This document shows positions 24,182-28,712 of a DNA stretch of 64,000 nt, one piece after another. Where the stretch lies: NCBI GenBank assembly GCA_044507735.1, contig JBIQJB010000001.1, positions 220,579-284,578 on the forward strand, in the 5' to 3' direction. A program made the translations under genes and the position numbers. The notes below the pieces were generated by a model. The model had not been told where the DNA came from and did not search any database. It saw only the letters and a list, made by a program, of their open reading frames with translations. The stretch's first letter is position 1; the number at the start of each line of letters is the position of its first letter. This DNA comes from Nitrosopumilales archaeon. Its GTDB lineage: Archaea; Thermoproteota; Nitrososphaeria; Nitrososphaerales; Nitrososphaeraceae.

Positions 24182-24653
24182 GACAAAGTGCAGAGTTTGC
24201 AGTTCATAAAGATTGCTTTCCGAGTTCTGGATTTTCTGACGGGACATCTAGGTCGCTAGCAACCGGCTAACCACGCACTATTGATTGGTGCCCAAGTTGT
24301 GATTCAAGAGTACCGTTGGCGTTTGGAGTTTGATTAAGATCGGGCCGAATCACATCGGTGACATCATTCGCTCTCATGCAGGAATCGATCTGAATCTTGC
24401 ATAGTATGAAGTTGAATCACGCACGAGACAGGTGGCGGTTTACTCAAAAGACGTACAAGAACCAACAGTAAATGGACTTGGTATCGGAACAAACAAAGTG
24501 CAGGTATTGAATGAAGGCGATTCGACAAAGATGAAGCCTCTTGAATGGATGGAAAAGAATTAATCGCGCGAAGTCCATGATATACTGAGAGTGCAGGGCC
24601 TTAACTGGATGGCGAGTGGAAAGGGTAGCTGCTGGATAATCATGACAGTTGCA

Positions 24654-25436
24654 TCAAAGTATGGCGGCAGCCTTTAGGAACATGATGACAGCTACAAAGA
24701 TCAACACAACGCCAATGAGCAGCTTCAGAGCGTTGGCACTAAATCTGGTTGTATATTTCGCGCCGATATACCCACCTATCATAGCTGTCGAACCCATCAG
24801 GCCAAGCACCAAAAAATCTACATTTCCATTTAGCAAATGACCTGCCAAGCCCGCCGCACCCATGATCGAAGATGCTGCTAGGTTTGTCCCAATAGCTACC
24901 TTTGGCTCCATCTTTAGCACCCCGATCATTGCCGGCATCCTTATGCTACCAAGTACTAATCCGACCATGCCGCCAAGAAAACCAACACCAAAGCCAATTG
25001 AGGATTCAACACCTAGATTTGGTTTACTCGCGGCCTTCTGTTCGCCCTTTCCTTTTTGAGAGCTAGTGATTAGCGAGTATGCTTCATAGGAAACAATCAA
25101 ACCAATGATGACAAAGAGAAAAGTTACTGGCACATGCTGTGTCAGCATAGAACCAAGAAAAGCACCCGCTGCACCTGTAGCAGCCATTATTGCAAAGATT
25201 CTGAGGTGCACGTTATTCTGTCGGAAGTGTCTGATTGCTGCGGTCATGGCTCCCAGAGTGCTAATGCCCATGTTCGTTCCAGCAACCATAGCTACCGTAG
25301 CTCCTGCGCCTCCAGTCGTTGTGAGAATCAGTGGAAATCTAAGCACTCCGAGAACCAGGCCTAAAAGACCTCCTACAAATCCAATGGCTAACCCAAGTGA
25401 GCCAAGCATGATAATCGTGAATAGGTCAATTGGCAT
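24654..25436 (-). CDS. Sulfite exporter TauE/SafE family protein
   Basis: About 8 TM; duplicated GFVGGLLGLVLG / GFLGGMVGLVLG and A(I)GTN motifs. Confidence 0.9.
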   Translation of the reverse strand: MPIDLFTIIMLGSLGLAIGFVGGLLGLVLGVLRFPLILTTTGGAGATVAMVAGTNMGISTLGAMTAAIRHFRQNNVHLRIFAIMAATGAAGAFLGSMLTQHVPVTFLFVIIGLIVSYEAYSLITSSQKGKGEQKAASKPNLGVESSIGFGVGFLGGMVGLVLGSIRMPAMIGVLKMEPKVAIGTNLAASSIMGAAGLAGHLLNGNVDFLVLGLMGSTAMIGGYIGAKYTTRFSANALKLLIGVVLIFVAVIMFLKAAAIL

Positions 25437-25601
25437 TTTGTTCTATCAGGATATTATCGGAAGCAATAGAGCCTATAAAAGCAGATATTCACACCACGCG
25501 CAACGAAATGATCTCCGCGCGGGATGGAACGGTCAATCAAATTGCTTCCACGACACGAGTTTGCAACTGCGCTAAAATTCATGCTGGATAAAATGAGAAG
25601 A

Positions 25602-25967
25602 CTATCCCTTGCTTTTCGACCACTTTATCATCCAGTCGATCAGCGACATGACAGATTCAACGAGCTCTTGTCCTTTTGGAGTCAGACGATATTCGACACG
25701 TGGTGGGATTTCGTTATATGCCTGCCTGCTCAGGATGCCGCTCTTTTCTAGTTCCTTGAGCCTAGAAGCCAGAGTCTTGCTGCTAATCCCTTTCAATGCC
25801 CGCCGAAACTGTTTGTACCTGACAGGTCTTGTGGTGCAGCAGAGAGGTATCAGAATTTCAAGTGTTCCCCTTTTGGTGATAATTTTGCGCAGCTTGGCTG
25901 TCTCTGCCATCAAGGAATCAACATCGTATCCGCAGCCTTCGATCATTGGGAGCTTCTTGGTTTCCAT
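25602..25967 (-). CDS. HxlR/HypR (MarR/DUF24) family transcriptional regulator with Cys residues
   Basis: GISSKTLASRLKELE...YNEIPPRVEYRLTPKGQEL; Cys in EGCG and PLCCT. Confidence 0.92.
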   Translation of the reverse strand: METKKLPMIEGCGYDVDSLMAETAKLRKIITKRGTLEILIPLCCTTRPVRYKQFRRALKGISSKTLASRLKELEKSGILSRQAYNEIPPRVEYRLTPKGQELVESVMSLIDWMIKWSKSKG

Positions 25968-25975
25968 GGTGAAAC
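25960..25975. promoter_or_regulatory. Putative HxlR operator 1 (GTTTC-N6-GAAAC)
   Basis: Perfect inverted repeat spanning the HxlR start codon; related box at 26009-26025. Confidence 0.55.
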
Positions 25976-26000
25976 TAACGATAGCAGAGTATCCTTGACA

Positions 26001-26035
26001 AGTTAAATAGTTTCCCAAGTAAACCTAAGCGGTGA
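26001..26035 (+). promoter_or_regulatory. TATA (TTAAATA), operator-like box 2 (AGTTTCCCAAGTAAACC) and SD (GGTGA) of the poly-Cys peptide
   Basis: TTAAATA 26003-26009, box 26009-26025, GGTGA 26031-26035, ATG 26040. Confidence 0.6.
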
Positions 26036-26039
26036 TAAA

Positions 26040-26126
26040 ATGGCAAAGAATAACCAACCAAAAGAAGCGGTAAAGGAATGCTGCCCAGATGGTTCGTGCA
26101 AAGGTTGTTGCTGCTGTTGCTGTTAG
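26040..26126 (+). CDS. 28-aa poly-cysteine peptide MAKNNQPKEAVKECCPDGSCKGCCCCCC (not in ORF track)
   Basis: SD GGTGA 4 nt upstream; 9 Cys using mixed TGT/TGC codons; followed by T-tract CTCTTTTTT. Confidence 0.78.
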   Translation: MAKNNQPKEAVKECCPDGSCKGCCCCCC

Positions 26127-26297
26127 GCGGTGGTGAACAACCCCTCTTTTTTCCAAAAAACCACGCGATCGGCAACAGCCGCAAATGTGCCGTAGCAAAA
26201 ACAACCAACTTGCAGCACCCGATACTAAACACCGAGTACGCAGCGGAACTCCAAACCCTAATACTTATATTAAGTTTATAAAACACCGTTATATTGT

Positions 26298-27071
26298 ATG
26301 GCATTTCTAGAAGTAAAGGATCTGCGCGTCAGCATCGACGGCAAGGAGATCCTCTCTGGACTCAATTTGAGCGTTGAAAAGGGTGAGGTCCACGCGATCA
26401 TGGGACCAAACGGTTCTGGCAAGAGCACTCTTGCAAATGCTATCCTTGGTCACCCCAAGTACAACGTCGAGTCTGGCGATATACTCGTAAATGGAGAGAG
26501 CATCCTCGACCTGTCTACCGATCTTCGAGCAAGGAAGGGTCTTTTCCTCGGATTCCAGTACCCTATAGAAATCCCTGGCGTTGGCTATAGCCACTTTTTG
26601 AGGAATGCTTACAACACTCTCGGCAAGGAAGACAAGAACCGCGAAGTGTTCCTCACTGTACGCGAGTTCCACGAGTACGTCAAAAAGAATCTTGACGCGG
26701 TAGGGCTTGACAAGTCGTTCTTGAGTCGATACCTGAACGAAGGGTTCTCCGGCGGGGAGAAGAAGCGCTCAGAAGTAATGCAGATGCTTGTCTTGAAGCC
26801 AAATATTGCGATACTCGACGAACCGGATTCAGGGCTTGACATTGATGCCGTCAAGGCGGTGGCTGAAGCAATAAACAAGCTGATAGATACTGGTGCTGGT
26901 GTGATCGTGATTACACACTATGCTAGGATCCTGCGTTACTTGACAAAACTCGATCGCGTCCACGTGGTTGCAAAGGGAAAAGTAATCCGATCGGGTGGCA
27001 AGGAGCTTTCAGAAGAGCTGGAAACAAAGGGCTATGGCTGGCTTGGGATAGAAGAAGGCAAGCCGGAATAA
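26298..27071 (+). CDS. sufC: Fe-S cluster assembly ATPase SufC
   Basis: GPNGSGKST, FQYPIEIPGV, NEGFSGGEKKR, LDEPDSGLDID, ITHY. Confidence 0.95.
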   Translation: MAFLEVKDLRVSIDGKEILSGLNLSVEKGEVHAIMGPNGSGKSTLANAILGHPKYNVESGDILVNGESILDLSTDLRARKGLFLGFQYPIEIPGVGYSHFLRNAYNTLGKEDKNREVFLTVREFHEYVKKNLDAVGLDKSFLSRYLNEGFSGGEKKRSEVMQMLVLKPNIAILDEPDSGLDIDAVKAVAEAINKLIDTGAGVIVITHYARILRYLTKLDRVHVVAKGKVIRSGGKELSEELETKGYGWLGIEEGKPE

Positions 27072-27453
27072 TAGTGAGACTGTAATTCACAGCTCTTCAC
27101 TCCTCTTTTCTCTTTCGAATATTTCCGAAATTCGGACGATGATCATCAACATAGACTCACGTGATATTGTCCAAAAACGCGACTTCTGCCTGCAGAGCGT
27201 AATCCTGGTTCTCAGTGATATTTGTCCGGGCAGCAGGTGCTGCAACCATAATGGGATACTCCGACTCGATGATTGATCTTTCAATTTCTCATCTACAAAC
27301 CATGTATTCCTGCTTAGACAACGGCAATGACAACAGGCATTATTCGGAGTTGCTATTGCAAGAATAGCTGTATATCAATTGTCTTGCAAGTGGCTGCACG
27401 CGTGAACGAATATACAATTGTTTTAAATATGGTTTGGAGGCAATTTACAGCAA

Positions 27454-28158
27454 ATGTCCGAAACACCCTCTTCTGCTGCTACTACTACTCCCACTGCAAC
27501 TACTTTCTTGAACTTTTCATTCTTCAAGGTGGATCCAAAGTGGCGCTGGCTCAACGAGATCGGCAAGGATGAAGCGGCCAAAGAGTTTGCAAACCTGGTC
27601 GAAGTGGCGAACACTAAGATGAAAGTGCGAACATATTCGACTCTGGGTCTGCGTGAAGATTCTGACTTTATGATCTGGATGATATCTGATTCGGTCGAAA
27701 AGATGCAAGTCATGACTTCCAAGATCTATTCGACAGTGCTTGGAAAATACATCACACCGTCGTATGTCTTTTTGTCTGCAGCAAGACCATCAATCTATTC
27801 TTCGAGGGTTACGCCCGGCTTTATGACCGACGAGCAGCCTATGAAATACTGCATCGTCTACCCTTTCGTAAAGTCACGCGAGTGGTACTTGTTGCCATTT
27901 GAAGAGCGGAAGAAAATGATGGAAGAGCACATCATGGTGGGTCGAAAATTTCCGCAGGTGAGGCTCAATACCACATACTCTTTTGGTCTTGACGATCAGG
28001 ATTTCATGCTGGCATTTGAGACTCCCGATTTGATGGCATTCCTGGAGCTGATAATGCAGTTGCGGGAAACAAAGGTGAGCAAGTACGTTGTCCGAGATAC
28101 TCCTATGATTGTCTGCGTTTATAAGGGAGTCGAGGACATCATCAAAAGTCTGGGATAA
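27454..28158 (+). CDS. Chlorite dismutase/coproheme decarboxylase (ChdC/HemQ) family protein
   Basis: VYPFVKSREWYLL...MEEHIMVG...VRLNTTYSFGLDDQDF. Confidence 0.88.
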   Translation: MSETPSSAATTTPTATTFLNFSFFKVDPKWRWLNEIGKDEAAKEFANLVEVANTKMKVRTYSTLGLREDSDFMIWMISDSVEKMQVMTSKIYSTVLGKYITPSYVFLSAARPSIYSSRVTPGFMTDEQPMKYCIVYPFVKSREWYLLPFEERKKMMEEHIMVGRKFPQVRLNTTYSFGLDDQDFMLAFETPDLMAFLELIMQLRETKVSKYVVRDTPMIVCVYKGVEDIIKSLG

Positions 28159-28712
28159 TGCAGGCGCTAAAAGAATGGGCCGTTGTCTGCAGGGCTCTTG
28201 AAGATGGTCGACAGGTCGTGCTTTTGCGCAAGGGCGGCATACTGGAATACAAGCAGGGCTTTGAAGTGAAACACGACCGGTTCTTGCTGTTTCCCACATT
28301 TGAACACCAGTCTAAGGATCATCTGCAGCCAGATTATGCGAATAAATTGGACGACGTGTTGAAAGAGCAGCCAGCCCCCGGCAGCAACAAGATAACTGCA
28401 TACGCTGAAGCAGTTGAGGTCAAGGAGTTGACCGACCGCACTGCCGTGCACTCGCTTGCAAAATACCACATATGGAACGAAAGCTATGTTAATGCGAGGA
28501 TTGATTACAACCCCAAGAAGCCAATGAGCGTGATATTACTCCGCGTTTTCAAATTGGACAGTCCCATAATGGTCGACAGCAAGCCTGAGTGGGTCGGCTG
28601 CAAATCATGGATACCGCTTGATCTAGAGGCAGAAGGTAGGCCCGCGTTGAGTGATTCTCAGTTTGACAAAATCGCGGCAGAAGTCAGGGAGGTGCTATCT
28701 GTAGCAGCATGA
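28158..28712 (+). CDS. DUF1802 family protein
   Basis: ALKEWAVVCRALEDGRQVVLLRKGGI...FPTFEHQ...GCKSWI. Confidence 0.88.
   Translation: MQALKEWAVVCRALEDGRQVVLLRKGGILEYKQGFEVKHDRFLLFPTFEHQSKDHLQPDYANKLDDVLKEQPAPGSNKITAYAEAVEVKELTDRTAVHSLAKYHIWNESYVNARIDYNPKKPMSVILLRVFKLDSPIMVDSKPEWVGCKSWIPLDLEAEGRPALSDSQFDKIAAEVREVLSVAA

Follow-up and report, generated by a model that had tools for sequence, protein, structure and literature searches.

Is an open reading frame (ORF) of 28 codons, nine of them for cysteine, a gene, and what would its product do? The question is raised by a 64,000-nucleotide stretch of the genome of a Nitrosopumilales archaeon (GenBank assembly GCA_044507735.1, contig JBIQJB010000001.1, positions 220,579 to 284,578; referred to here as the window), in which such an ORF lies at 26040..26126 on the forward strand, from an ATG at 26040 to a TAG at 26124-26126, next to a divergently transcribed regulator of the HxlR family. 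Its translation, MAKNNQPKEAVKECCPDGSCKGCCCCCC, ends in CCCCCC, and the tail is written in mixed codons (TGT TGC TGC TGT TGC TGT), all as an earlier note on this DNA had described. On balance, the peptide is probably, if by no great measure, a metallothionein-like thiol peptide that arsenite (As(III)) induces as part of an arsenic regulon under HxlR control, a reading drawn from gene order and sequence conservation in related genomes.

The peptide is 32% cysteine, contains CC, CxxxxC and C6 motifs and lacks phenylalanine, tryptophan, tyrosine and histidine; in size, cysteine content, motifs and absence of aromatic residues it resembles the metallothionein class. No Pfam family at E ≤ 0.01 and no NCBIfam family, hence no curated metallothionein profile, matched it, and a search of 25800-26400 against Rfam (E ≤ 1) returned nothing. 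A Shine-Dalgarno (SD)-like GGTGA (26031..26035, forward strand) stands 4 nt upstream of the ATG, a TATA-like TTAAATA (26003-26009) lies further upstream and a T6 tract (26147-26152) follows the gene; the earlier note had recognized all three signals. The poly-Cys codons pair with 3' sequence in a hairpin (26103-26142) ahead of the tract, and the combined element (26103..26152, forward strand) is likely the transcript end of the peptide gene. The predicted RNA fold of 26031-26160 is unexceptional, being no better than that of shuffled sequences (z -0.59), so that only the T-tract is firm as a transcript-end signal. The hairpin might function much as an intrinsic terminator does, or it might simply arise from the (TGY)n repeat. 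Because a six-frame translation of the window genome (2.33 Mb) contains 13 runs of at least six cysteines, and five stop-terminated tails of four or more, a lone ORF of this kind is not beyond chance and the case rests on comparison with relatives.

This comparison started from the intergenic DNA of the locus, which was compared with relatives and the matches read. The resulting census covers ORFs located behind a 29-nt promoter/operator element, TTGACAAGTTAAATAGTTTCCCAAGTAAA (25995..26023, forward strand, between the HxlR start codon and the peptide ORF); peptide genes without this element would be missed. A Cys-rich ORF of 17-38 aa occupies the same position behind the operator in 17 genomes, including that of the window. 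The gene for a Cys-dense micropeptide that the earlier note had proposed, unannotated and paired with a cysteine-bearing HxlR regulator, is therefore genuine and conserved. Two types are distinguished. Type A, to which the window gene belongs, combines a CCPDGxCK core with a poly-Cys tail and is found in 10 genomes (G000, G017, G066, G003, G001, G005, G014, G059, G007 and G207, the last from a sister genus). Type B follows the pattern CCxDxCCKSEPCxCGCC and is found in seven (G006, G046, G078 with an altered C-terminus, G082, G086, G087 and G071). The peptides are clearly homologous to each other. Related members hold 7-12 cysteines, tails vary from four to six cysteines, and the non-Cys residues P-D-G, K and S-E-P are also kept; one to three aromatic residues occur in the peptides of G059, G207, G005, G007 and G086. 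With an automatic filter for Cys-rich mini-ORFs starting at most 75 nt from an operator site, 16 of 169 sites passed (locus L075 fell narrowly below the filter). The same filter applied to both strands of about 0.93 Mb of other fetched DNA returned 10 mini-ORFs, none with this architecture. The comparative signal is beyond chance.

Selection on the encoded sequence provides further evidence. The ratio of non-synonymous to synonymous differences per site (pN/pS) is about 0.05-0.2 across the family, indicating purifying selection. Between the window genome and G017 there are six synonymous and three non-synonymous differences (pS 0.40, pN 0.045); across the 12-codon type A core, pN is 0-0.12 and pS mostly 0.6-1.3 (0.15 for the closest pair), and type B pairs show pN of 0.06-0.17 against pS of 0.57-0.98. 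Start signals are also recurrent. Genes that begin 15-22 nt from the operator mostly carry GGTGA or GAGGTGA (just GTGA in G207), and those of G001, G005, G014, G007 and G071 begin at +8 from the operator, have no SD-like element and look leaderless, as arsM does. A T5-7 tract lies 11-21 nt past the stop codon in seven stand-alone peptide genes, and it is preceded by a hairpin of the poly-Cys codons in G000, G017, G066 and G014, with a different partner sequence in G066. Given the shared position, the selection, the start signals and the T-tracts, the ORF is taken as a real gene with high confidence.

The family is essentially absent from protein databases, and no paper on it was found. Searched with a profile built from 16 peptides, a set of 1,835,955,588 representative proteins gave a single match at E ≤ 0.001, the unnamed 34-aa peptide of G207 itself. 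Six other members are absent by exact sequence from a 15-billion-protein collection, and the ESM Atlas gave no usable match for the 34-aa member. Among 80 HxlR loci from named genome records, mostly of distant bacteria, no further Cys-tail peptide was found beside HxlR. Literature searches found no publication joining polycysteine and arsenite; on archaeal metallothioneins they returned general reviews, and none on a metallothionein-like protein in ammonia-oxidising archaea.

The operator itself points to the regulon in which the peptide belongs. Its TATA-like box lies inside an inverted repeat with the consensus AACT-TAAAT-AGTT (AAGT in the window genome) that is centred on the box; the consensus and the conservation of each position were computed from 168 sites. 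The element is invariant or nearly so: with up to three mismatches allowed, 55 of the 72 genus genomes carry the pattern, mostly in one or two copies, and the reversed control gave no match. Across the class, 108 of 401 sampled genomes carry it, nearly all in two families (65 of 77 genomes in f1, and 41 of 224 in f13, for which 30 of the listed sites were examined). These tallies include the unpublished genomes G022, G053, G054, G009, G079, G217, G391, G352 and G426, from which no claim about the peptide is drawn. At the 169 distinct sites, the operator is followed by a full arsM-like gene in 109 cases, by a partial arsM (at a contig end or truncated) in 14, by a Cys mini-ORF in 16 and by something else or nothing in 30, and an HxlR gene adjoins 120 of them. 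No copper, zinc or mercury gene was found behind the operator at these sites, and, outside the window, no suf or sulfur gene either. The window genome has a single copy, of which the peptide gene is the sole predicted downstream target, and the divergent HxlR gene shares the intergenic region. From this arrangement we infer that the 29-nt element acts as an operator bound by the HxlR regulator.

The genes that usually follow the operator are arsenic genes. The arsM-like genes score above the NCBIfam cut-off of NF008823 (275.7, 284 and 273.8 bits; cut-off 263), and at most loci that are long enough an arsC-like gene of the low-molecular-weight-phosphatase type (LMWPc) comes next, then one for a MIP channel, in the order arsM-arsC-MIP. 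As judged from gene content, this is the classical reduce-and-release arsenic operon plus methylation; aquaglyceroporins are described as bidirectional As(III) channels in the accessible text of PMC6138428. By gene order, HxlR-operator-arsM-arsC-MIP is the dominant architecture across the order and is probably ancestral. The type A peptide took the genomic place of arsM. It stands directly ahead of arsC-MIP in five genomes (G003, G001, G005, G007 and G207) and alone in the other five of the ten, that of the window included. ArsM (E ≤ 1e-30) was not found in eight of the nine other type A genomes, which are 66-99% complete, and was found in G014; it was also found in G087, a type B genome used as a control. 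In the window genome (completeness 97%) no arsM passes the cut-off, the best candidate reaching 70.6 bits. Genomic comparison thus presents the peptide gene as a conserved gene under selection that shares its predicted operator with ars genes and replaces arsM, and co-regulation with these genes may be inferred from the shared operator. A context of arsM, arsC and an aquaporin argues for arsenic, and not for sulfite, persulfide or Fe-S metabolism.

Type B peptides have a different setting. They are encoded at separate loci without HxlR, and the HxlR gene of these genomes adjoins arsM, or a decayed arsM in G071. At loci L051, L075, L083 and L089 the peptide gene has on one side a divergent gene, whose 233-244-aa product terminates in a zinc ribbon, and on the other an ABC-2 permease gene that runs in its own direction; the partner ABC ATPase gene of the permease is convergent. 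In G046 a radical SAM gene takes the place of the zinc-ribbon gene.

The regulator of the window is a 121-aa HxlR/DUF24-family protein encoded at 25602..25967 on the reverse strand, with a winged-helix HxlR domain (PF01638, E 5.9e-23, 81 bits against a cut-off of 20.8). It carries Cys12 (in GCG) and the pair Cys43-Cys44 (CC), and these residues are kept in 95, 97 and 97, respectively, of 97 distinct HxlR sequences. Its identity to the operator-linked HxlRs of relatives is 60-97%, compared with 38% for the next paralog in the genome, which identifies it by sequence as the ortholog of the regulator divergent from arsM operons across the order. In a tree of these regulators (126 columns, FastTree, poorly resolved), peptide-linked members are interspersed among arsM-linked ones; parsimony gives six changes, at least two of them forced by well-supported branches, and the tree yields no count of arsM-to-peptide replacements. 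The cassette may have moved by recombination between flanking conserved sequences; alternatively, several regains or losses of arsM may have taken place. Relatives with solved structures are YodB, HxlR and YybR. Cys12 lies in an N-terminal extension and Cys43/Cys44 just before the helix-turn-helix, and the alignments to Protein Data Bank entries neither cover nor match the YodB-type cysteine, which we take to be Cys6, in helix alpha-1 near the N-terminus. As a whole, the order-wide divergon, with its three-Cys HxlR, palindromic operator overlapping the TATA box and arsM-arsC(LMWPc)-MIP genes, looks like an HxlR-type arsenic switch of ammonia-oxidising archaea in place of ArsR.

Since the regulator-operator pair governs arsM-arsC-aquaporin in most relatives, the window protein most likely acts at the TATA box as a repressor that responds to As(III). 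In the mechanism that we propose as the simplest, the HxlR repressor would sit on the TATA-like box and block access of the TATA-binding protein. As(III) would bridge the three thiolates of Cys12, Cys43 and Cys44 and release the protein from the operator, so that the peptide would be made upon arsenite exposure. Each arsenite binds three cysteines, according to the accessible text of PMC3877260. At three cysteines per As(III), a peptide could hold up to three arsenic atoms and would serve as an intracellular buffer, sponge or hand-over chaperone in the manner of a minimal metallothionein. The four steps on which this scheme depends are predictions from genomic context, namely that the regulator binds the motif, that arsenite induces the gene, that the peptide is made and that it binds As(III).

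Several observations weigh against this scheme. The ArsC-like proteins score below the NCBIfam arsenate-reductase cut-offs (95.9 against 215 bits), so that the arsC name rests on best matches to arsenate reductases and on context. Neither Acr3, ArsB, an arsC-LMWPc gene nor MIP was found in the window genome, at the completeness given above; with no recognizable arsenite export route, sequestration alone must suffice there. Type B genes lie away from HxlR, beside the zinc-ribbon and ABC-2 transporter genes, and the left half-site of their operator is degenerate. To our knowledge, known HxlR-family sensors respond to electrophiles and oxidants, not to arsenite, and no publication linking HxlR with an arsenite methyltransferase was found that could serve as precedent. 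In a near-identical strain (DNA run X9), a T>C change at 26121 converts the last Cys codon to Arg, which suggests that the very last cysteine is dispensable or variable, and the ancestral ATG has been lost in G003 (ATG to ACG); together, these two changes mean that parts of the peptide are dispensable. The profile-profile match (hhalign) of the peptides to the ArsM N-terminus, relevant to their origin, is weak (probability 23.8%, 13 columns).

Some of these points feed directly into other explanations. The peptide might be a general soft-metal metallothionein, for Cu(I), Zn, Cd or Hg, or a thiol/electrophile buffer, with HxlR sensing thiol-reactive stress at large and arsenic as one branch of the response. 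YodB and YybR, which are among the structural relatives of the regulator, are thiol-based electrophile or oxidant sensors; the size, cysteine content and lack of aromatic residues fit metallothioneins of any metal, and the type B neighbors are not ars genes. Set against this are the nearly uniform arsM-arsC-MIP targets of the operator elsewhere, the absence of copper, zinc or mercury genes behind all 169 sites and the five genomes in which type A fills the position of arsM in an arsC-MIP operon that has otherwise stayed intact, and we regard a general buffer as possible though unlikely. A still smaller share falls to a cis-acting leader, in which ribosomes stalled at the Cys codons for want of cysteine or charged tRNA-Cys, as might happen under arsenite stress, would change how transcription terminates at the hairpin and T-tract and so tune downstream genes. 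The ORF heads arsC-MIP in half of the type A genomes and is of leaderless type in some of these, the hairpin precedes the T-tract in four genomes with a changed partner in one, and mycobacteria offer a precedent in the accessible text of bioRxiv 10.1101/834739. However, the other half of type A and all of type B stand alone without a conserved downstream gene, and three different genes follow the peptide in the three closest genomes. A pure codon sensor would also have no need of the P-D-G, K and S-E-P residues that are under purifying selection, the fold does not exceed that of shuffled sequences, and sufC has a promoter-like element of its own. We know of no established case of attenuation of this kind in archaea, and the leader explanation is improbable.

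More improbable again is an ORF without function, either left over from the 5' end of a decayed arsM or arisen by chance, that stays open only through its position at a strong promoter. This explanation draws on the repeated decay of arsM behind the operator into N-termini of 20-59 aa, on the lost start codon of G003 and on the frequency of poly-Cys runs in six frames. Most arsM remnants, however, differ from one another and are not Cys-enriched beyond the ArsM motif, whereas the peptides share CCPDGxCK-Cn or CCxDxCCKSEPCxCGCC at a pN/pS of 0.05-0.2 and near-saturated synonymous change; most of the genes starting 15-22 nt past the operator have SD-like elements, and type B genes have been relocated together with their promoter. 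The earlier note had suggested a possibly undescribed minimal metallothionein or a persulfide, thiol or Fe-S/sulfur store under redox control, in a module that includes TauE and SufC. Persulfides or clusters can be carried by peptides rich in cysteine, and the genes are physically adjacent in the window; neither adjacency is conserved in the relatives examined, though, and the operator precedes no suf or sulfur gene elsewhere. A sulfur or Fe-S store is the least probable of these explanations, and the arsenic context speaks against it; the metallothionein-like binding role, the other part of that proposal, survives as the best reading.

The proposed As(III)-inducible peptide has partial counterparts in known systems. 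In the smtB-smtA pair of Synechococcus, an ArsR/SmtB repressor gene is head-to-head with a bacterial metallothionein gene, the two share an operator-promoter, and the ligand presumably derepresses the pair and is then sequestered by the product. The window locus is similar in that a regulator gene and a small Cys-rich gene are head-to-head around one operator-promoter region, and presumably in this logic. It differs in that the regulator is HxlR/DUF24 and not ArsR/SmtB, and in that the peptide is half as long, matches no Pfam metallothionein family, ends in poly-Cys and has arsenic regulon partners. ArsD, which has about 120 aa, a thioredoxin-like fold and a Cys12/13/18 site, has ArsA as its partner. 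In the accessible text of PMC6138428, ArsD and ArsA are always associated, and ArsR repressors, the ArsD chaperone and an N-terminal Cys pair of ArsM are described. Like ArsD and ArsR, the peptide would be an ars-operon product with vicinal cysteines for As(III), the binding being predicted here, and by analogy with the As(III) sites of ArsR, S3 coordination by three cysteines is the likely sensing mode of HxlR. Unlike ArsD, the product has 17-38 aa and no family match, and no efflux pump was found in the window genome among those searched (Acr3 and ArsB).

For gene anatomy, the nearest published analogue is the group of polycysteine leaderless short ORFs of mycobacteria, described in the accessible text of bioRxiv 10.1101/834739 as cysteine-responsive attenuators. 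The two groups have in common that the ORFs are short and unannotated, contain consecutive Cys codons, are often first on the transcript and are partly leaderless. As that text has it, the mycobacterial ORFs act in cis on cysteine-metabolism operons, while here arsenic genes or none lie downstream; the archaeal peptides also differ in being under purifying selection for their sequence and in that many copies are monocistronic.

The closest likeness in sequence is to the N-terminal Cys motif of ArsM/AS3MT itself. Peptide genes and arsM share the promoter and the +8 start, and their products both begin with a stretch rich in K and E and then have a CC-x2-3-C(C) motif. The peptide differs in having no methyltransferase domain and a poly-Cys tail without counterpart in ArsM, and the profile match is the weak one given above. 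Descent of the peptide from the Cys-rich ArsM N-terminus, encoded by the 5' end of the gene, is nevertheless plausible from the shared motif. arsM decay is recurrent behind the operator: remnants of 20-59 aa are present at loci L012, L047, L077, L078, L063, L072, L118 and L120, and with L065 these loci carry either remnants or an internal deletion, with arsC-MIP intact in most. In G453, two paralogous 49-aa ORFs behind the operator (L183:636-782, forward strand, and L185:648-794, reverse strand) clearly encode stand-alone N-termini of ArsM, cut off immediately behind GGGCC, and may represent a stage between ArsM and the Cys peptides.

Taken together, these elements suggest a broader proposition, which we put forward tentatively and consider rather doubtful as a whole: that soil ammonia-oxidising archaea possess a new class of arsenic sensor, a three-Cys HxlR acting on a palindrome that overlaps the TATA box; that several lineages swapped arsenite methylation for a poly-Cys micropeptide born from the ArsM N-terminus; and that archaea would thereby have their first metallothionein-like sponge for As(III). 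If the arsenic reading itself is right, a gene-encoded thiol peptide would join the arsenic-resistance toolkit, and HxlR rather than ArsR would be the likely arsenic switch of globally important nitrifiers, with a bearing on soil nitrification under arsenic. It would also mean that functional genes of about 30 codons are missed by gene callers. Biosensor design would gain a small natural tag that binds As(III), together with the regulator and its 29-bp operator as parts, and the ArsM origin, if true, would be a clear case of a new micro-gene arising from the 5' end of an enzyme gene.

The flanking TauE and sufC genes lie outside the conserved unit. The gene order given in the earlier note is confirmed by Pfam and TIGR01978 matches: the divergent HxlR gene with its GCG and CC cysteines is co-oriented with a gene for a TauE/TSUP-family permease (24654..25436, reverse strand; PF01925, E 1.8e-39), which begins 165 nt past the HxlR stop codon, and sufC (26298..27071, forward strand; TIGR01978, 319.9 bits against a cut-off of 212.8) follows the peptide gene. 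The proposed TauE-HxlR-peptide-SufC sulfur/metal module was rejected, TauE and SufC being adjacent to the regulator and peptide only in the window genome. By tblastn, TauE was found beside HxlR at none of the other fetched relative loci, the sufC genes of relatives are at loci with neither operator nor peptide, and the genes downstream of the peptide differ among G000, G017 and G066. Because these adjacencies are unconserved, and because a TATA-like element of its own lies about 26 nt before the sufC ATG, the module is unsupported. The conserved Cys-tail ORFs that the earlier note suggested looking for in relatives were found behind the operator and not beside sufC. Within 24600-27100, contigs from RNA run X19 and from X20, a possible RNA run whose status is a guess, touch parts of sufC and not the ORF, and those of X20 additionally overlap part of TauE.

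The sufC gene has neither sufB nor sufD alongside; after it come a gene of the chlorite dismutase family and one for a DUF1802 protein (26298-28712). To the left of TauE, a short gene at 24378-24647 (forward strand) shares 66% identity over 90 aa with a 115-aa gene located after the G017 peptide gene, with additional copies on contigs C10 and C18; these paralogs suggest local rearrangement around the locus.

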